From IMG/VR virus record IMGVR_UViG_3300029585_000107, positions 729 through 64,728 of that record: a DNA stretch of 64,000 nt, one strand, 5' to 3'. Positions 17,097 to 49,492 of this stretch are shown here, one piece after another; positions within the stretch are counted from its first letter, which is position 1, and every line of letters starts with the position of its first letter. The DNA comes from a virus. The notes beneath the pieces are model-generated. The model ran no database searches and had not been told where the DNA came from. It saw only the letters and a program-made list of their open reading frames with translations. The position numbers and the translations under genes are program-made.

Positions 17097-17741
17097 ATGG
17101 CAAAGAAACCAGCGCCCAAACTGTCGATTCAATACATGCCGATTAGCGAGCTCGTTTCGGCGAAACGGAACCCAAAGCGACACCGCCTTGACGAGATATC
17201 CGGCTCGATAGAGCGCCATGGCTACACACGGCCACTCCTCATCAACGAGAAGACGGGACGACTTGTCGCAGGGCACGGCCGACTGAAGGCCCTGTGCAAG
17301 ATGCGCGACGAGGGAAGGCCGGCGCCGAGGAGAATCAGGGTCGACGGCGACGAGTGGCTAGTTCCAGTTGTCCGAGGCGTCACGTTCAAGAGCGAGAAGG
17401 AAGCCGAGGCTTACCTGCTCGCCGACAACCGAGTCGGTGAGCTTGGAGGCTACGACGACAGCGCGTTGCAAGCGATGCTCGCAGAGATCGACAGCCTGGA
17501 CGGGACCGGCTTCGACGAGGGCTTCTTCGAAGATCTCACTTACAAGCTGGAGAGCAAGGAAGGCCCCAAAGAGCCGGAGCCATCGTTCATGGACGGGCAG
17601 CTCAAGCAACTCATCTGCCTCTTCAGTACCGAGGAGTACGACGAGGTCACAGATCGTATGGAGGCTGTCGCCGAGGCCGAGGGGCTCGAGACCAACACCG
17701 CTGTGCTTCTGCATTTGCTAGACACCTACGCCGCGGGCTAG
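17097..17741 (+). CDS. ParB/Srx-like N-terminal domain protein 1
   Basis: RNPKRH, GYTRPLLINEKTGRLVAGHGRLKAL and AYLLADNR. Confidence 0.85.
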   Translation: MAKKPAPKLSIQYMPISELVSAKRNPKRHRLDEISGSIERHGYTRPLLINEKTGRLVAGHGRLKALCKMRDEGRPAPRRIRVDGDEWLVPVVRGVTFKSEKEAEAYLLADNRVGELGGYDDSALQAMLAEIDSLDGTGFDEGFFEDLTYKLESKEGPKEPEPSFMDGQLKQLICLFSTEEYDEVTDRMEAVAEAEGLETNTAVLLHLLDTYAAG

Positions 17742-17750
17742 TCTCAGGGC

Positions 17751-18413
17751 ATGGCAAAGGCAAAGGCGCCGACCGAGGCGACGATCGAATACATGCCCCT
17801 TGAGACGTTGGTGGCGGCGAAGCGGAACCCGAAGCGGCACAACATGGCTGCCATCAGCGATGCTATCGACCGGCATGGCTACGTTCGCCCGGTAATGCTC
17901 AACGAGAAGACTGGGCGCCTTGTCGCCGGCCACGGGCGAGTCTCCGCGCTTCGAGAGATGAAGCTTAGCGGCAGCAAGCCACCGGCGCGCGTCGAGCTCA
18001 ACGGCGACGGCGATTGGCTCATCCCCGTGGTTCGCGGCATCAGCTTCAAGACCGAGGCGGAGGCGGAGGCCTACCTCCTGGCGGACAACCGTGTTGGCGA
18101 GCTTGGAGGGTATGACGAGGACGAACTCCGTCGAATCCTGAACGACACCGACGAGATTTCGGGCACGGGGTTCACGGAGGAGTTTCGCGACCGACTCGAC
18201 GCGAAGCTCAGCGGCGAAGGTGGGCGAGCCAAGAACCCCGAGGAGCTCTACTCCGGGTTCGTGAACGCGAGCATTAAGCAGCTCGTCTTTCTCTTCAAAG
18301 CGGCGGAGATGGAACATGTCACGAAAAAACTCGACACCATTGCGTCTGAACACGAGCTGGAGTCGCACGGAGACGTGCTCGTACATCTCCTCGATTCCTA
18401 CGAGAACAGTTAG
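17751..18413 (+). CDS. ParB/Srx-like N-terminal domain protein 2 (paralogue of 17097)
   Basis: Same motifs, including an identical EAEAYLLADNRVGELGGYD block. Confidence 0.85.
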   Translation: MAKAKAPTEATIEYMPLETLVAAKRNPKRHNMAAISDAIDRHGYVRPVMLNEKTGRLVAGHGRVSALREMKLSGSKPPARVELNGDGDWLIPVVRGISFKTEAEAEAYLLADNRVGELGGYDEDELRRILNDTDEISGTGFTEEFRDRLDAKLSGEGGRAKNPEELYSGFVNASIKQLVFLFKAAEMEHVTKKLDTIASEHELESHGDVLVHLLDSYENS

Positions 18414-19212
18414 CCTCCGCCCTCTTCCCGAGGGCGTAGAGGTCGGGGCTGTGGCGACCGACGCCCACTACGACACCGTCATCGACAGCGCCTGCATCCT
18501 CAAGACGGAGGACGGCGAGACGATCGGAGCCTACATTCCTGTTGACCGTGGATGCATTTCCGACCTGGAGAGGCACCTGGACACCATCAAGTTCACGACC
18601 TCTTCGAGGACGTCGGGAATGAAGGCCAAGGCGATGATCTTCGGAGCGCAGCCGCGGAGTACGCTTCGGCGGGACTACTGCACCATGGCAGGGATGAGCT
18701 GGAACTACCCCGAGCCGCACCGCGCGCTCGTGGAGACCGGGGCATTCATGTCCGAGGTTCTGAAGGCGATATCGCCAGACACCTGGCGCGCGCAAAGGGC
18801 CCAGGTCGAGGGCATCCTTCCCGTCTGGCGCTTTGGAGACGACAGCGTGTTCACGTCTGGCATTGCAAACCTGAGCACGGCGCACACCTACCACCGGGAC
18901 AAGGGCAACTTCCCGGGGAGCTGGAACTGCATGCTCGCATGGCTCCGAGAGGCCGACGGCGGCAGAACCGTGTTCCCCGCGATCGGCGCCGCGTTCGACT
19001 TCAGCCAGCCAGCCCTTACGAGCTTTCACGCAGAGCAGTACCTACACGGCGTTACCCGAATCCGACGCCGGCCAGGAGGCAAGCGCTACAGCGTCGTCTA
19101 CTACGCGATGAAAGGCCTCACCCAATGCGGGACCCCCGACGAAGAGATTGAGCGATTCCGTCGAGTGAGGACAGAGCGCGAGCGCAAGCGGCGCTCAGGC
19201 AAGAAAGGCTGA
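18316..19212 (+). CDS. 2OG-Fe(II) dioxygenase, TET/JBP-like
   Basis: FTSGIAN..HTYHRDKGN (HxD), LHGVT (distal His), RYSVVYY (2OG-binding Arg); adjacent to ParB-like genes as in known phage TET/JBP loci. Start uncertain. Confidence 0.78.
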   Translation: MSRKNSTPLRLNTSWSRTETCSYISSIPTRTVSLRPLPEGVEVGAVATDAHYDTVIDSACILKTEDGETIGAYIPVDRGCISDLERHLDTIKFTTSSRTSGMKAKAMIFGAQPRSTLRRDYCTMAGMSWNYPEPHRALVETGAFMSEVLKAISPDTWRAQRAQVEGILPVWRFGDDSVFTSGIANLSTAHTYHRDKGNFPGSWNCMLAWLREADGGRTVFPAIGAAFDFSQPALTSFHAEQYLHGVTRIRRRPGGKRYSVVYYAMKGLTQCGTPDEEIERFRRVRTERERKRRSGKKG

Positions 19213-19734
19213 GATCTTCTCAGCCACGGCCCTGGCATCGAGGCGCTCTGAGATTTCAATCTCCAGGCGCTTGCCTTCGAACTCCGACAGCTCGTAGAAG
19301 CGGCGACTCTTTGTGACTCGCCCCTTCACCCACGCTGGGTTCTGCTTCGACCCGCGGGCGGCCCTGCGACTTGCGGCAATCTCCGAGCCGTGCAGAAGTA
19401 CGCAGCGGAGTTCCGCCCCCTGGGAGGCGAGCCACGAGACGACCTTCTGGTTCGAGAAGCGATCGCCATCAAAGAAGGTTCTCTCGTAGCGGCTCAGAGC
19501 CGAGCCCCAGAATGCCAGCGCGGCCTCGACTCCGTTGTACGGCACCGTGTCGGCACCATCGAATTTCGTCCCCGTGTAGTGCCCTGCCGCAGCGACCTTG
19601 CCGCGACCACCCATTGTCCACTTGGGGCTCTTGTTCATCGCATTCTCGTGCTCGAGGAGAAGGCGCACTGCAGAGGTCTTCCCGGTTCCAGGCTCCCCTA
19701 CGACAAAGATTGCTATCGGTGCTTTTCGTTCCAT
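19195..19734 (-). CDS. P-loop nucleotide/DNA kinase of phage base-modification type
   Basis: Walker A GEPGTGKT; GHY..FDGAD, FFDGDRF and RRAARGSKQNPAWVKGRVTK; overlaps the aGPT-Pplase-like gene. Confidence 0.72.
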   Translation of the reverse strand: MERKAPIAIFVVGEPGTGKTSAVRLLLEHENAMNKSPKWTMGGRGKVAAAGHYTGTKFDGADTVPYNGVEAALAFWGSALSRYERTFFDGDRFSNQKVVSWLASQGAELRCVLLHGSEIAASRRAARGSKQNPAWVKGRVTKSRRFYELSEFEGKRLEIEISERLDARAVAEKISAFLA

Positions 19735-20825
19735 TGGTTTCCAAACTCCGGCCATTCCACATCCATCATGATGACTTCGCCGGTATTCAAGTAGTGGTTT
19801 TGCTTCTCTGGGACAAGGCCCGGGTCCAAGGGACACTCCTCGACGAGGAGCCGCGCTGGCAGCTCTGCGCTACGAGCTCCCCAGAAGACATCCGCGATGT
19901 CCTGCGAGAGGCGCCCCTCGGCCTTCTTGATGCGGTTGTAGAGCATGTCGTTGTAGACGTTCGGGTAGCGACGGTTCGGCTTATGCCACGACTTGTACGT
20001 GCAGAACGCCGACTCCAGGGTGAAGAGTGAGACGGTATCGTCGCCAGGCATTCGCGCTCGCGCCTCAGAGAGCAACTCCTCCGCCTCTTCGGCCAGCCAC
20101 CCGATCATGTTTGCGGAGTAGCGCCCATCAAAGCCGGGGTTCGACTTGTCCCAATACAGGTCATCTCTTCCGAGCACTTTGCAGAGACCGTTCCTGTGGG
20201 ACTTCGACCCCGAGCGGTCTCCGAGGAAAAGACTAGAGCACTCCAGGGGAACCCCGGCGATCTTCAGGTACTCCAGATAGCTGAAGGTGGACAGGCGGCC
20301 AAACGAGTAGAAGTGGCCGCTCACGAGACCCCAGATGGCCTCGAAGTTCTTCTTCTCATCCGAGGCCCGGTCGAAGAGCTTCTCCTGCGTCCCGCCGATC
20401 GAACGCACGACTTCCGCGTATCGCTCCACGCTCTGCAGGAAGTTCTTCTTGTGGTAGCGGCGGTCGGTGTCGAATTCGAGACGCTCGTACTCGGCATTGA
20501 ACCAGGCCCCCAGGGCCGCTTGGTTCAGGCCACGGAGCTCTGGGAATTTCTCGAAGATCGCGAGGCTCGTTATCGGGTTCTGCGTGTTGCCGTTGAGGAA
20601 CGCAAACCAGAGCCTCTCCTCCATCCCCCACCCGTAAAGGCCCGCGAGATGGGGGAGCAAGTAGTAGACACACCCGGGGTGACTCCGGTGGCGAGTATGG
20701 AACTCGTAGAACCGGAGGAAAACCTCCCTCCGGTACTCAGGGAGCCGAAAGTCCATACCCCGCTCAAGCTTCCCGGTCTCGGCCACCCCATGGAGGTGAG
20801 ACCAGCGGCCGGGACGACGAATCAC
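19713..20825 (-). CDS. aGPT-pyrophosphorylase / amino acid:DNA transferase (AADT)-like protein (HhH-glycosylase fold)
   Basis: FDTDRRYHK, SFGRLSTFSYLE and TLESAFCTYK (ExxxCxxK). Alternative start at ATG 20756 (MDFRLPEYRRE). Confidence 0.68.
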   Translation of the reverse strand: MIRRPGRWSHLHGVAETGKLERGMDFRLPEYRREVFLRFYEFHTRHRSHPGCVYYLLPHLAGLYGWGMEERLWFAFLNGNTQNPITSLAIFEKFPELRGLNQAALGAWFNAEYERLEFDTDRRYHKKNFLQSVERYAEVVRSIGGTQEKLFDRASDEKKNFEAIWGLVSGHFYSFGRLSTFSYLEYLKIAGVPLECSSLFLGDRSGSKSHRNGLCKVLGRDDLYWDKSNPGFDGRYSANMIGWLAEEAEELLSEARARMPGDDTVSLFTLESAFCTYKSWHKPNRRYPNVYNDMLYNRIKKAEGRLSQDIADVFWGARSAELPARLLVEECPLDPGLVPEKQNHYLNTGEVIMMDVEWPEFGNQWNEKHR

Positions 20826-25977: not shown

Positions 25978-26372
25978 CCGAGTTTCCAGAGGGCAAGCGC
26001 CCCGAGTTCAGCAAGCGCTCCCCAGGTCGCATGCGCAGCGCCGACATCGAGCGAAGCAAGAGGTTTGATCAGCATCTCTTGCAGCGCTACAACAGCGAAC
26101 AGCTCACCTACGCCGACCTTGCGAAGCTCTACAGGATGGGTACGAGCACGATTCGCGACCGGATCGACAACGCGCGACGCGAGAACCTCCCAAAGACAGC
26201 CAAGGTCGGCGCGGAGGCGCGGAGGCGCCAGGCCAAGGCATGGCGCAAGGCTGCTGTCCTTCTCGACGCTGTCCAGCTCACTTCGCCAGGGCGCAAGGAT
26301 GAGATGCAGGATCTTGCCATGGAGGCTCTACAGCGAGCTCGCGCGATCGACGACGAGGTTGGTGAGCCATGA
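25974..26372 (+). CDS. Hypothetical HTH protein
   Basis: LTYADLAKLYRMGTSTIRDRI; coupled on both sides. Confidence 0.55.
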   Translation: MTEFPEGKRPEFSKRSPGRMRSADIERSKRFDQHLLQRYNSEQLTYADLAKLYRMGTSTIRDRIDNARRENLPKTAKVGAEARRRQAKAWRKAAVLLDAVQLTSPGRKDEMQDLAMEALQRARAIDDEVGEP

Positions 26373-26983
26373 GCCGAACGAAACAGCAAGACCACGGGTT
26401 CGAGTTCTTCCCCACCGAGAGGGCGGTGGTCCACGCCCTGCTAGAGTGCCCAGAACTGGAGCTCAGCGGCGGGATATGGATCGACCCTTGCGCTGGGAGT
26501 GGGCGCATCATCGAGGCCACCAGGGAGCGCAGAGACGACGTCTCGTGGTTCGTCTGCGAGCTCGACCCTCGGTTCGACGGCATGCTCTCAAGAGTCCTGG
26601 ACGCTGAGAGGGACCACCAGGAACCCTACCAGGATTTCGTCTCGGCACCCTGGAACCTACCCAGGGCCAAGGTCGCAATCTTCAACCCGCCGTTCAGCCA
26701 CACGACCGACTTTGTCGAGGCGGCTATGGAGCGGGCGGAAACAGTGATCTGCTTGCAGCGGCAGGCATGGTTCGGCAGCCAGAAGCGCGCGGGCTGGCTC
26801 AGAGAGCACTGCCCGGACACCTACGATCTGCCCTGGCGTCCAAGCTTCCGCCCGGACGGGAAAACCGACAATTGCGAGTACTCGTGGTACGTCTGGCCGA
26901 ATGGCGAGTTCAACCGGCGAAGCGGGCGAAGAATGATGCTCGACGCGCCCGACAACCGGCAGAGAGAAATTTTCGGGGAATAG
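26369..26983 (+). CDS. DNA N6-adenine (amino) methyltransferase
   Basis: FFPT, IDPCAGSG (motif I), FNPPFS (motif IV). Confidence 0.85.
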   Translation: MSRTKQQDHGFEFFPTERAVVHALLECPELELSGGIWIDPCAGSGRIIEATRERRDDVSWFVCELDPRFDGMLSRVLDAERDHQEPYQDFVSAPWNLPRAKVAIFNPPFSHTTDFVEAAMERAETVICLQRQAWFGSQKRAGWLREHCPDTYDLPWRPSFRPDGKTDNCEYSWYVWPNGEFNRRSGRRMMLDAPDNRQREIFGE

Positions 26984-28336: not shown

Positions 28337-28524
28337 GGTCGAAGAACACAGGAATCGGGCGCCTGCACAAGCTCTTGGACAGGAACCCCAACGCAGCAAA
28401 CCTAAAGGTCCCAAGGGATGTCGCCGAGCGCGTCATCCTCGAGATGATGGCAGCGGCTTCCAAGGTGGAGCTCCTGCGTCAAGAGAACCTTTATTTGAAG
28501 AAAGAACTCGAGGCGTTAAGGTGA
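28333..28524 (+). CDS. Hypothetical protein
   Basis: Coupled chain. Confidence 0.5.
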   Translation: MRSKNTGIGRLHKLLDRNPNAANLKVPRDVAERVILEMMAAASKVELLRQENLYLKKELEALR

Positions 28525-29057
28525 GGTACTCAGACATCCCCATGCTCACGAGCGAGTCGCCATACTCCGTCGACGTCTCCTGGAGCTACCTAGAGAGCTG
28601 GATTGCATCCCAGGAAAGAGACTGCGTGAAGTTTGAGCTCGACCCGGACTTTCAGCGGTACCACGTCTGGGACGACGTCAAGCGCACGCGTTACGTGGAA
28701 TTCATCCTCCGAGGCGGTCGCTCATCTCGCGCTCTATACTTCAACTGCGCGGGCTACCTCGGACCCGACGACGAGGGCCCAATGCAGCTCGTCGACGGCA
28801 AGCAGCGCCTTACCGCCGTTCGGCGATGGCTCCGCGACGAGGTGAGAGCCTTTGGAGTTTTTCACAGCGACATGGTGGGCCGCATGGGACTCGGCGGCCC
28901 AGGGTTCAAGGTTCACGTGAACAACCTTCCCAGAAGGGCGGACGTTCTGCGCTGGTACCTCGAACTCAACGCCGGAGGCGTCGCCCATACCCCCGAGGAG
29001 ATCGCGAGAGTGCAGGCGCTCCTGGACCGCGAGCCCCTTGGTAAAAACACCCCATGA
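28521..29057 (+). CDS. DUF262 (GmrS-like ParB/Srx fold) protein
   Basis: LDPDFQRYHVWD and LVDGKQRLTA, the QR and DGxQR signatures. Confidence 0.8.
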   Translation: MRYSDIPMLTSESPYSVDVSWSYLESWIASQERDCVKFELDPDFQRYHVWDDVKRTRYVEFILRGGRSSRALYFNCAGYLGPDDEGPMQLVDGKQRLTAVRRWLRDEVRAFGVFHSDMVGRMGLGGPGFKVHVNNLPRRADVLRWYLELNAGGVAHTPEEIARVQALLDREPLGKNTP

Positions 29058-29956: not shown

Positions 29957-30186
29957 TCGGCATCTGCGGGCACCAGCAAACCCCGGACAGCACCGTCATG
30001 GGGGATTGGCTCAACAGGATGCCGTGCCCATGGCCGAAATGCCCCCTTGGGCACCGCGAGACGAGGTACCGCGTTGCCCTCGAAGACCACGGAAGAGAGC
30101 TCGTATACCGACGAGAAGAGAGCTGCATGGCAACACCAGGAAGAGACCGATCCGAGTCACTGTTCCGCTGGGTGCTCGAACAATGA
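29953..30186 (+). CDS. Small Cys-containing hypothetical protein
   Basis: GTGA/ATGA overlaps. Confidence 0.45.
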   Translation: MIGICGHQQTPDSTVMGDWLNRMPCPWPKCPLGHRETRYRVALEDHGRELVYRREESCMATPGRDRSESLFRWVLEQ

Positions 30187-46969: not shown

Positions 46970-49492
46970 GTGGAGATCTCCAAGCGGCAAGAGGAGATCG
47001 TTCAGCAGACTCTCCAGCATGCAGTCGAGGCGGTTCGCTCCATCCCAAACAGCGCGCTCGCCTCATTCCTTCCACACCTAAAGCTCGCCCAGGAGGCCCT
47101 CATCAAGGACCTCAAAGCGTGGGAGATGAAGCAAGACGGCGCGGCGCGATACACGGCCCACGTGAAGCGCTCGGCACTTGCACAGCTCGAGGCTGCGATG
47201 GCGGAGATCGAAGCCCTCGCCCCGACCATGTACAACACCCTGCTCTCCTCTGGGATGAAGGCAGGGGAGGCCGGCCTCACGGCCATGGAAAAGCAACTCT
47301 CTAGCCTCAACGCGATGTTCGAGGGCTCGATGGTGCCAGTTAGCTTCGACCGGGCGGCCATCCTCTCCGGTGGCGAGAAGCTCCTACTGAACAAGTACCC
47401 AAGTAGCGCGGCTCGCTACGCCGGGAAGATTCGCGACGATGTTCGCCGGCACCTGGCAGTTGGCACCCTTCAGCAGAAGTCCATCAGCGAGATGGCGACA
47501 AAGATGTACGAGGAGATTCCTCACGTCTTCAAGAACGCCAAGTTCAACGCCATGCGGCTTGTTCGCACAGAGGTGATGAACTCCTACAACGAGATGCACC
47601 TTCAGGGCCTCCAGGAGGCCCACGAGGAGGACAGCGACGTCAAGATGCGCTGGGACGCGAGCTACGACTTTCGCCGGTGCCCAGAGTGCGGCTCTCTCGA
47701 CGGCAAGATCGTCGAGGTGGACAAGGAATTCACCGCGAGCTGGAGCACGGCCAGCGGCGCGGCCAAGCAACGCACCCACAGGCGTCCACCGGCACACCCT
47801 CAGTGCCGCTGTGTGCTTGTTCCGTGGATCGATGACTGGCCGGACACGGACTGGAACACGGAGCCGCCAGAGGACGGCGTTGCGCCCGATGCGACCTACG
47901 TTTTCGGCAAAGGGGCACACGAGGTCCCTAAGAGCATCCTAGAGCAAGAGAAGAAGGAGGAGGAGGCGAAGAAACTCGCTGCCAAGAAGGCTGCCGAAGC
48001 GAAGGCAAAGCAACTTGCCGAGGCCAAGGCCAAGAAGCTGGCGGCGGAGAAGGCGGCGGCGGAGAAGGCAGCCACCGAGAAGGCCAAGGCGGAGGCTTTG
48101 GCGAAGAAGAAGGCCGCCGAGGAGAAGGCTAAGGCAAAGAAGAAAGCCGCTGCGCTTGCTGCCAAGAAGGCAGCTGAAGCTGCTGCGAAGAAAGCTGCCG
48201 CAGAAGCAAAGAAGAAGGCTGAGGCTGCCAAGAAGAAAGCTGCCGCGGCGCTGGCGAAGGCCAAGAAGGCCGAGGAGGCCGCTGCCAAGAAGAAGGCCGC
48301 TGCCGAGGCCAAGGCAAAGCTGGAAGCCGAGAAGGCCGCTGCTGCCAAGAAAGCGAAGCTCTCAGCCGCTGCCAAGAAGGCTGCCGCAACCAAGGCCGCT
48401 GCCAAGAAATCCATGGAGGCGGCGGACAAGAACCTTGCGAAGATGGGCGCCCCAGCCCTGAAGGGGAAGATCACGGTCGGCAAGAAGAAGATCGCCGAGC
48501 TCGAGGCCAAGATTGCCGGCAAGGGCGGGAACAAGTACGAGCTGAACAAGGCCCTGAAGAAGGAGGTCGAGCTCAAGGCTCTCGCCGAGAAGCATCTCGC
48601 GGTCAAGCTTGCGGCGAAGGCCGACGCCAAACCGAAGCCAAAATCCAAGGCTAAGCCCGCGGTCGCCCCTTCTAGCTGGTCGCCCAAGAAGGTCGAGGGC
48701 ATGAAGCAATTCGTCGAGGCCGGCAAGAGCTATCAGCAGAAGAGCGAATACCTCTCCTACTGGCCTACCGGCGACGAGGTCAACAAGGCCTACGAGATCT
48801 GGGGTAACGGCAAGAAGCCCCCCGGGTACAAGGCAGAGCTCGTTGGCAAGGGGCCCACCGGCTCATACAAGAAGACCGGCCCATACACACCGCCCGATGG
48901 CAAGAAGGTCGCCTACGACGACGGCAAGAAGCGTCTCAAACAGGCTAACGCCATCGGATTGCGCGACCTGAAGAGCGACAGCCGCAAAATGATTAACGCT
49001 GCTTCAGTGCAGCAGCAAGGCTCCCTGCGGGCCTACACCGGCGCCGCCTACAGGCCAATCAACCAGGGCCTGCGAAATGGCACTCTCGACCAAAACGATA
49101 CCGCCAAAAGGCACGTCAAAAAGCTCGATGAGTTCTACAAGACGGCGCGCCTCAAGGAGGACCATGTCGTCTACCGAGGCGTGAGCTTTCGCGGGGATTT
49201 CAAGGCGCCCGAAGTTGGGGCTCTCTGGGAGGAGAAGGGCTACAGCTCGACTTCGATCTCGAAGGCCGGCAAGTTTGGGGGCAACGGCTACCTCACGATC
49301 GAACTGCCGACAGGAACCCCCGGGGTCTACGTAGAGAGCATCTCTTCTTATACGAGCGAGAAGGAGCTTCTCCTTGACCGAGGTGCCCGATTTCGCGTAA
49401 TCAGCAAGGAAGTGAAAGGCGGCGTCACCCATATCCGCCTCCGCGTTGAGAGCACGGAGACGACCAGGAAGCTCAAAGAGGAGCTGCCTTGA
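46970..49492 (+). CDS. MuF (SPP1 gp7-like) head protein fused via a Lys/Ala-rich linker to a C-terminal ADP-ribosyltransferase domain
   Basis: RLVRTEVM, CPEC..DG and PPAHPQCRC (MuF); AYTG..Y..IN..LR, VYRG, YSSTS and EKELLL (R-S-E ART). Confidence 0.88.
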   Translation: MEISKRQEEIVQQTLQHAVEAVRSIPNSALASFLPHLKLAQEALIKDLKAWEMKQDGAARYTAHVKRSALAQLEAAMAEIEALAPTMYNTLLSSGMKAGEAGLTAMEKQLSSLNAMFEGSMVPVSFDRAAILSGGEKLLLNKYPSSAARYAGKIRDDVRRHLAVGTLQQKSISEMATKMYEEIPHVFKNAKFNAMRLVRTEVMNSYNEMHLQGLQEAHEEDSDVKMRWDASYDFRRCPECGSLDGKIVEVDKEFTASWSTASGAAKQRTHRRPPAHPQCRCVLVPWIDDWPDTDWNTEPPEDGVAPDATYVFGKGAHEVPKSILEQEKKEEEAKKLAAKKAAEAKAKQLAEAKAKKLAAEKAAAEKAATEKAKAEALAKKKAAEEKAKAKKKAAALAAKKAAEAAAKKAAAEAKKKAEAAKKKAAAALAKAKKAEEAAAKKKAAAEAKAKLEAEKAAAAKKAKLSAAAKKAAATKAAAKKSMEAADKNLAKMGAPALKGKITVGKKKIAELEAKIAGKGGNKYELNKALKKEVELKALAEKHLAVKLAAKADAKPKPKSKAKPAVAPSSWSPKKVEGMKQFVEAGKSYQQKSEYLSYWPTGDEVNKAYEIWGNGKKPPGYKAELVGKGPTGSYKKTGPYTPPDGKKVAYDDGKKRLKQANAIGLRDLKSDSRKMINAASVQQQGSLRAYTGAAYRPINQGLRNGTLDQNDTAKRHVKKLDEFYKTARLKEDHVVYRGVSFRGDFKAPEVGALWEEKGYSSTSISKAGKFGGNGYLTIELPTGTPGVYVESISSYTSEKELLLDRGARFRVISKEVKGGVTHIRLRVESTETTRKLKEELP

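Follow-up and report, generated by a model that had tools for sequence, protein, structure and literature searches.

The stretch of viral DNA analyzed here, a window of 64,000 nucleotides comprising bases 729–64728 of the 65,628-bp IMG/VR record IMGVR_UViG_3300029585_000107, contains six genes that quite probably specify a ParB-dependent, dioxygenase-fed pathway of thymidine hypermodification acting on finished DNA. These are two tandem ParB-like genes, a TET/JBP-family dioxygenase, a P-loop kinase, an amino-acid:DNA transferase (AADT) and, at some distance, a pyridoxal phosphate (PLP) enzyme (Table 1). In the proposed pathway, the phage DNA would be copied by the host polymerase with ordinary deoxythymidine triphosphate (dTTP), after which the TET/JBP enzyme, activated by the two ParB-like proteins encoded just upstream of it, would hydroxylate a subset of the thymines to 5-hydroxymethyluracil (5hmU) with the aid of Fe(II), 2-oxoglutarate and O2. 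The kinase, a member of the family PF18751, would phosphorylate the new hydroxyl to give 5-phosphomethyl-deoxyuridine (5-PmdU), and the AADT would then flip the base out, activate it via a conserved Cys and swap the phosphate for an amino acid, most likely serine linked via its side-chain oxygen (O-seryl-thymidine). Lastly, a PLP enzyme of the type of gp226 from Salmonella phage ViI would strip off the carboxylate, leaving 5-(2-aminoethoxy)methyl-deoxyuridine or a close analogue, and the likely benefit would be that the phage DNA is shielded from host nucleases. The gene identities, conserved catalytic residues, synteny and absences on which this reading draws come from the present analysis, whereas thymine oxidation with its dependence on ParB, the chemistry of the AADTs and decarboxylation by gp226 are taken from published relatives.

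The dioxygenase, kinase and AADT genes, which the first-pass annotation of this DNA had described as lying side by side, are present and intact, and the Tet_JBP, Ploopntkinase and ADDT models it had proposed for checking them all gave matches above the curated Pfam cut-offs. Its route from thymine via 5hmU, 5-phosphomethyluracil and an aminoacylated thymine to a PLP product, made on DNA, is still the best-supported reading and fits the gene content. However, it had left out the ParB pair, even though ParB has been reported as the activator of this subclass of dioxygenases (PMC13229309). The same genes recur together in other viruses. The 80 closest IMG/VR loci encoding an AADT (50–59% identical, out of at least 160 hits) include 60 with a TET homologue, mostly in one co-directional operon with the PLP and kinase genes; 59 have a kinase homologous to that of the window, in 60 a PLP homologue is located inside the cluster, and in four a thymidylate-synthase homologue stands in place of the TET gene. 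The combination of TET, PLP enzyme, AADT and kinase is thus a common metaviromic operon, the gene order in two of these loci (L020/L021) being ParB-ParB-TET-kinase-PLP-AADT.

The dioxygenase and its tandem ParB-like partners

The open reading frame (ORF) of the dioxygenase (18316–19212) matches the Tet_JBP family PF12851 with an E-value of 1.7e-10 (40.8 bits vs. a cut-off of 34.9), and the HRD, LHGVT and RYS motifs noted earlier are found in its translation. The residues H148, D150, H199 and R212, which correspond to the HxD...H iron triad and the 2-oxoglutarate-binding Arg, are invariant in an alignment of 40 homologues, at least 90% of which also share C226. The 27 residues following C226 form a basic and conserved C-terminal extension, which includes E232, R235, T241 and R247. 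The PDB matches of the family profile are CMD1 and TET2. An exhaustive search detected 873 representative TET homologues, whereas only three matches were obtained by a word-indexed protein search. Homologues from cultured phages are present in 96 records, nearly all of them from actinophages.

Enzymes of this family include a ParB-dependent subclass (clade C1 of the 5-methylpyrimidine dioxygenases, or 5mYOX), whose members adjoin a short ParB homologue in which the nucleotide-binding and the C-terminal domain are kept and no DNA-binding domain is obvious (O'Toole et al., PNAS 2026, PMC13229309). According to the same study, a C-terminal extension is found only in the ParB-dependent enzymes and is absent from the ParB-independent ones, and the subclass lacks a neighboring C5-methyltransferase and is "consistently linked" with glutamine amidotransferases, P-loop kinases and AADTs. 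Such phage enzymes convert T to 5hmU after replication, in vivo as well as in vitro, at 25–35% of the thymines and with a sequence preference; the pair 5mYOX176 and ParB176 converted ~35% of the T in Escherichia coli DNA, with ParB being required on double-stranded DNA and NTR sites being preferred (PMC13229309). Because ParB genes lie just upstream of the window dioxygenase, the C-terminal extension is present and the record contains no match to the C5-methylase family PF00145, this enzyme fits clade C1 in each of the sequence-level features of the ParB-dependent subclass, and an activity converting T to 5hmU is predicted for it. It also resembles the 5mYOX176/ParB176 type in its linked kinase and AADT, but it differs from it in having two ParB paralogues rather than one, and its nearest homologue found is only 43% identical.

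Both ParB-like ORFs are without a Pfam match, and they match PHROGs 620 and 723 with E-values from 1e-28 to 3e-33. Their plus-strand frames are supported by the profile of G+C content at third codon positions (GC3), and the pair ends 38 nt before the start of the dioxygenase gene. The distal copy (A) and the proximal copy (B) are 52% identical, and since a box II-like GHGR and a box III-like ADNR motif are kept in both, neither copy looks degenerate. The AlphaFold2 model of copy A (mean predicted local distance difference test score, pLDDT, of 92) consists of an N-terminal ParB/Srx domain (residues ~10–115), two helices, a flexible or disordered linker and a C-terminal two-helix domain (residues 178–213), and the best PDB matches of its N-terminal domain are Noc, ParB-CDP, PadC and KorB. 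A full helix-turn-helix DNA-binding domain is absent from the model, which matches the architecture of the 5mYOX-associated ParB proteins. Of 89 related loci examined by an iterative search, 72 have ParB upstream of TET and 32 have two ParB genes in tandem, many of these contigs being near-copies of one another.

In a phylogenetic tree of the ParB homologues, copies A and B of the window are each other's closest relatives (support of 99 in the Shimodaira–Hasegawa-like approximate likelihood-ratio test, SH-aLRT), and the same is observed in L005 and in L020/L021, whereas two larger groups each split into a clade of distal copies and a sister clade of proximal ones, which mirror each other. Tandem ParB genes occur in the window and in the loci L005, L008/9, L020/21 and L055–L111, and by this topology the duplication arose independently at least five times, with both copies kept each time. 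Loci with two ParB genes are not discussed in the main text of O'Toole et al. 2026 (PMC13229309). A hetero-dimeric ParB activator is a reasonable hypothesis for them; in a predicted complex of ParB-A, ParB-B and the dioxygenase, the score on the dioxygenase was 0.08, vs. a mark of 0.32, a value that counts neither for nor against the hypothesis. The genome contains a third ParB-fold gene (28521–29057), encoding a protein of 178 aa whose similarity to the GmrSD-type restriction enzymes, which act on modified DNA, is confined to their N-terminal ParB/Srx-fold domain (GmrSD_N-like, E 1.4e-7, just under the cut-off). It was considered as a dioxygenase activator and rejected, since the tandem pair adjoining the dioxygenase gene is the syntenic one.

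The source of the substrate was examined by searches covering the whole 65,628-bp record at E<=1, in which no match was found to DNA_methylase (C5, PF00145), Thymidylat_synt, dCMP_cyt_deam_1, DNA_pol_A, DNA_pol_B or Radical_SAM. The earlier statement that no deoxycytidine monophosphate (dCMP) deaminase, deoxyuridine monophosphate (dUMP) hydroxymethylase (a thymidylate-synthase homologue) or DNA polymerase could be recognized thus holds for the entire record. Without a C5-methylase there is no phage-made 5-methylcytosine (5mC) to serve as a substrate, and without a thymidylate-synthase homologue there is no source of 5hmU at the nucleotide level. The replication genes identified are those for a DnaD/O-like loader, a DnaB helicase and RusA, and this set, together with the lack of a polymerase, thymidylate synthase and dCMP deaminase, supports the view that the phage relies on the host polymerase and normal dTTP for its replication, the modification probably being made on the polymer afterwards. 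In phage ViI, by contrast, 5hmU is provided by a dUMP hydroxymethylase together with the phage's own polymerase, whereas the window phage is proposed to employ a dioxygenase on DNA. An ORF of 204 aa (26369–26983) matches the middle of phrog_799, annotated as "DNA methyltransferase", with E 8e-30 and was therefore considered as a possible C5-methylase. Since it matches no Pfam family and PF00145 is missing from the genome, it is not a recognizable C5-methylase and was not counted as a source of 5mC.

It is very improbable that the dioxygenase instead acts on 5mC installed by the host, with the downstream enzymes decorating 5-hydroxymethylcytosine. The characterized phage TET enzymes of clades A and B are reported to be 5mC dioxygenases (PMC8256090), and 5mYOX97 and 5mYOX176 are also reported to oxidize 5mC iteratively to some extent in vitro. 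However, the phage has no C5-methylase of its own, linkage to ParB and the C-terminal extension are traits of the T-dioxygenase subclass, and all characterized AADTs and their kinases use derivatives of 5hmU. The replacement of TET by a thymidylate-synthase homologue in the four AADT loci mentioned above also points to 5hmU as the common intermediate.

The downstream enzymes and the predicted base

The kinase matches Ploopntkinase3 (PF18751) with an E-value of 2.4e-10 (40.7 bits vs. a cut-off of 27) and contains the Walker A motif GEPGTGKT. Gp4 of the mycobacteriophage Prince belongs to the same family (243 bits), whereas the characterized 5-hydroxymethyldeoxyuridine (5-hmdU) DNA kinases of phages M6 (gp54) and ViI (gp243) belong to PF18748 and PF18747, respectively; the window kinase matches PF18751 only, and PF18748 has no match in its genome. 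None of the papers searched names PF18751. The enzyme may work like the 5-hydroxymethyluracil DNA kinases (5-HMUDK), and it is the weakest step of the proposed pathway. Among the loci sampled, those fed by a TET enzyme have PF18751-type kinases and the four with a thymidylate-synthase homologue (L044, L045, L052, and L054) have M6 gp54-like kinases. Which family the kinase belongs to thus seems to depend on where the 5hmU comes from, in what is a small sample (L034–L113) where, of the thymidylate-synthase loci, only L044 is confirmed as PF18748 in Pfam. A more far-reaching proposal, which we put forward tentatively and hold to be unlikely rather than likely, is that the dioxygenase is activated by an obligate hetero-dimer of the two ParB paralogues and that PF18751 makes up a third family of 5hmU-DNA kinases, which goes with pathways fed by a dioxygenase and not with those fed by nucleotides, with a final base that is possibly uncatalogued. 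If true, the hetero-dimer and PF18751 together would set this phage apart as a variant of thymidine hypermodification distinct in both its regulation and its enzymes.

The AADT matches ADDT (PF18724) with an E-value of 2.9e-18 (66.9 bits vs. a cut-off of 26.2). The top PDB match of its AlphaFold2 model (pLDDT 94.5; predicted TM-score, pTM, 0.92) is gp46 of phage PaMx11 (PUGT, a 5-PmdU glycinyltransferase; 8z2m, probability 1.00, TM-scores 0.57/0.67), followed by weak matches to helix-hairpin-helix (HhH) glycosylases, so that the HhH-glycosylase fold, whose absence from the protein encoded at 19713 the first-pass annotation had named as evidence against its proposal, appears to be present. The residues C252 and D180 are invariant among the window AADT, ViI gp247, M6 gp51 and Prince gp3, and they align with Cys247 and Asp175 of PaMx11 gp46, which have been implicated in catalysis (PMC11472151). 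Of gp247 and gp51, only the former gave a BLAST match (26% identity, E 5e-23), and the AADTs of Prince-like mycobacteriophages are 46% identical to that of the window. The subfamily of this AADT is large, separate and metaviromic, with at least 160 loci at 50–59% identity and no characterized member. When 185,579 species genomes were scanned with the AADT alignment, matches were found on only three contigs of metagenome-assembled genomes (from Actinomycetota, Bacteroidota and Victivallaceae), which gave no clue to the host, and the cassette looks essentially viral.

A fold-type II PLP enzyme had previously been noted at 30183, and its presence there is borne out. The match to the PALP model that had been suggested for checking it is weak (E 7e-4, under the cut-off, as is that of ViI gp226 itself), whereas phrog_3650 is matched with E 8e-121. 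The protein is 48% identical to ViI gp226 (E 2e-113) and gave no BLAST match to M6 gp52, and the Lys at residue 120 of its ORF aligns with K92 of gp226, the proposed internal-aldimine residue (Lee et al., PMC8989533). Pure gp226 decarboxylates O-seryl-thymidine in DNA to 5-aminoethoxymethyl-deoxyuridine (5-NeOmdU) (PMC8989533). When 60 members of the family were placed in a tree, the window enzyme, ViI gp226 and gp019 of Aeromonas phage phiA8-29 formed a clade with an SH-aLRT support of 100, which is nested within a family otherwise drawn mostly from loci that contain TET. The homology to gp226 with the conserved Lys, together with the homologues located inside 60 of the 80 AADT clusters, indicates that the distant PLP gene belongs to the pathway.

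The final base is most likely 5-NeOmdU or a close analogue. The decarboxylation by the PLP enzyme requires a free alpha-amine (Lee et al., PMC8989533); in ViI, serine is attached via oxygen and no extra step is needed, whereas in M6 glycine is attached via nitrogen and a radical SAM isomerase must act first (PMC8989533). A product of the ViI type is suggested by the lack of a radical SAM gene and by the BLAST matches of both the AADT and the PLP enzyme to ViI but not M6 proteins. That the product is specifically 5-NeOmdU, the serine donor being inferred at 26% identity, has roughly even chances. Alternatively, the same first steps could lead to a different, uncatalogued base, either through another nucleophile (such as threonine, homoserine, cysteine, glycine or a polyamine) or through a PLP enzyme that does not decarboxylate, and this outcome we consider possible, if somewhat unlikely. 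The distance of the AADT from gp247 and its placement in the metaviromic subfamily described above would allow it, as would the range of donors (Ser, Gly or putrescine) used by characterized AADTs of the same Pfam family (PMC8989533), and the matches obtained for the PLP enzyme in a PDB sequence search include desulfhydrases and deaminases, viz. D-cysteine desulfhydrase and 1-aminocyclopropane-1-carboxylate deaminase. However, the PLP enzyme shares its strongly supported clade with a proven decarboxylase, the free amine which it requires would be missing from an N-linked adduct and the isomerase is not encoded. Furthermore, no additional tailoring enzyme (an acetyltransferase, a flavin adenine dinucleotide-dependent lyase, an amidotransferase or a glycosyltransferase) turned up among the ORFs scanned.

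Several observations weigh against the proposed pathway as a whole. The DNA is a metagenomic virus record, and its chemistry is predicted from the genes. Many of the ParB-dependent enzymes in the published screen yielded <5% 5hmU, and the only two-ParB locus tested with both copies (5mYOX196 with ParB196_1 and ParB196_2) yielded 0.7% (both preprint Table S2). The kinase falls outside both characterized families of 5-hmdU DNA kinases, so that its substrate is deduced from synteny only, and at 26% identity to the serine-transferring gp247 the donor used by the AADT is not readable from the sequence. We infer which substrate the kinase takes, that serine is the donor, what the final base is and which roles the two ParB copies play. 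In addition, the PLP gene is unlinked, lying ~9.4 kb away, and its product is nearer to gp226 of the Ackermannviridae (48–51% identity) than to the PLP enzymes encoded within the metaviromic clusters (33–42%); because of the latter difference, it may have been acquired separately or relocated.

The separation of the genes also bears upon the possibility, which we regard as improbable, that the set has decayed or is only partly functional, so that the DNA would end at 5hmU, at the amino-acid adduct or unmodified. The operon is split in three, with ParB-ParB-TET on the plus strand, the kinase and AADT genes convergent to them and the PLP gene far removed, unlike the co-directional operon of its relatives, and the near-inactivity in E. 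coli of many homologous enzymes would agree with such decay. However, all six ORFs are full length with a coding-type GC3 of 0.75–0.80, and the invariant catalytic residues that were checked are all kept. Scattered genes are also functional in ViI, where gp226, gp243, and gp247 are 8–10 kb apart.

Comparison with known hypermodification systems

The statement in the first-pass annotation that no biochemical characterization of this gene combination was known is out of date: the oxidation step has been characterized (PMC13229309), contigs with TET_JBP, 5-HMUDK and AADT have been described (PMC8989533) and modules of this kind are annotated in cultured actinophages. The type of pathway is therefore already known and partly tested, and the phage described here is a new example of it. 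Lee et al. 2021 reported hypermodification contigs containing TET_JBP and proposed that 5hmU is formed in situ (PMC8989533). With these contigs (TET_JBP, 5-HMUDK, and aGPT-Pplase2; Lee et al. 2021, Fig. 2 sequences 22–25) and with the "THM" modules of actinophages, the window shares the set of ParB, TET, AADT and PF18751 genes. In Mycobacterium phage Prince, gene 1 is annotated as ParB-like, gene 2 as a thymidine hydroxylase, gene 3 (the AADT) as a "DNA glycosylase" and gene 4 (PF18751) as an "adenylate kinase," and for Rhodococcus phage Tonitrus a "thymidine hypermodification system" composed of the same five kinds of gene has been published (PMC11955845). The window differs from Prince, whose first 8.8 kb contain a single ParB gene and no PLP gene, in having a PLP gene and two ParB genes. 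Their structural genes are unrelated, and the terminase is ~30% identical to those of the nearest cultured phages. When the cluster was compared by megablast with 50,697 phage records, no match was obtained, and hence no close cultured relative was found.

The pathway leading to 5-NeOmdU in ViI and CBA120 (gp67/gp243 kinases, gp247, and gp226; Lee et al. 2018, 2021, PMC8989533) resembles the proposed one in the Pfam family of its AADT, in a PLP enzyme with the conserved Lys and in its scattered genes; it differs from it in the source of 5hmU and in the family of its kinases, as described above. The likeness to the trypanosome proteins JBP1/2 and base J lies in the post-replicative conversion of T to 5hmU by a TET/JBP enzyme, followed by decoration of the hydroxyl. 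However, JBP acts alone and its product is glucosylated, whereas in the window the hydroxyl would be phosphorylated and the base then aminoacylated.

The study of the 5mYOX enzymes covers the oxidation step alone and not the chemistry downstream of it (PMC13229309). The pathway has so far been characterized only in pieces, oxidation being known from 5mYOX/ParB pairs and transfer and decarboxylation from ViI, whose 5hmU comes from nucleotides, and this genome offers a complete and compact test case. Its six genes could show whether a fully post-replicative route installs a base of the ViI type on any DNA, which would be useful for enzymatic DNA labeling, and also whether the PF18751 proteins are 5hmU-DNA kinases and what role the recurrent duplication of ParB plays.

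Two other observations concern related loci and their annotation. In L002 (1376–3547) and L003, ParB and TET genes are followed by genes for an FkbM-type methyltransferase, a single-stranded DNA-binding protein and the terminase, without a kinase or AADT, and loci of this type may make O-methylated 5hmU. In public records, TET homologues are often misnamed as "queuine tRNA-ribosyltransferase," the M6 gp54 kinase as "terminase small subunit" and AADTs of phages as "DNA glycosylase" or "nucleotide pyrophosphohydrolase."

Gene boundaries and neighboring genes

The coordinates of the six genes are summarized in Table 1. The start of the dioxygenase is placed at a GTG codon (18451), which is located eight bases after the ribosome-binding site AGAGG and matches a database gene call of 253 aa. 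The most likely starts of the kinase and the AADT are M36 (19731) and M24 (20756) of their ORFs, respectively, and that of the PLP gene is the ATG at 30183.

Table 1. Genes of the predicted thymidine hypermodification pathway, with positions counted from the first base of the window.
Gene product	Coordinates	Strand	Family match or predicted role
ParB-like protein A, 214 aa, distal copy of the tandem pair	17097..17741	+	phrog_620 E 3e-33, phrog_723 E 3.8e-28; predicted dioxygenase activator
ParB-like protein B, 220 aa, proximal copy, just 5' of the dioxygenase	17751..18413	+	phrog_620 E 2.3e-29
TET/JBP-family 5-methylpyrimidine dioxygenase (5mYOX), predicted thymine dioxygenase, 253 aa	18451..19212 (ORF open from 18316)	+	PF12851
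P-loop kinase (Ploopntkinase3), predicted 5hmU-DNA kinase, ~178 aa	19195..19731 (ORF open to 19836)	-	PF18751
Amino-acid:DNA transferase (AADT, formerly aGPT-Pplase clade 2), 347 aa	19713..20756 (ORF open to 20825)	-	PF18724
Fold-type II PLP enzyme, predicted ViI gp226-type decarboxylase, 347 aa	30183..31226 (ORF open from 30006)	+	phrog_3650, gp226 homology

The G+C content is ~61%, and an exact repeat of 59 bp is present at the ends of the record. A search of public sequencing runs gave no entry. Farther downstream, the minus strand encodes RecT and a YqaJ exonuclease, both recognized by Pfam. Further along, an ORF at 46970–49492 encodes an 840-aa MuF-like head protein whose C-terminal domain is an ADP-ribosyltransferase toxin (ADPrib_exo_Tox, E 9e-24); MuF-toxin fusions of this type are known, and the protein is presumably injected along with the DNA.

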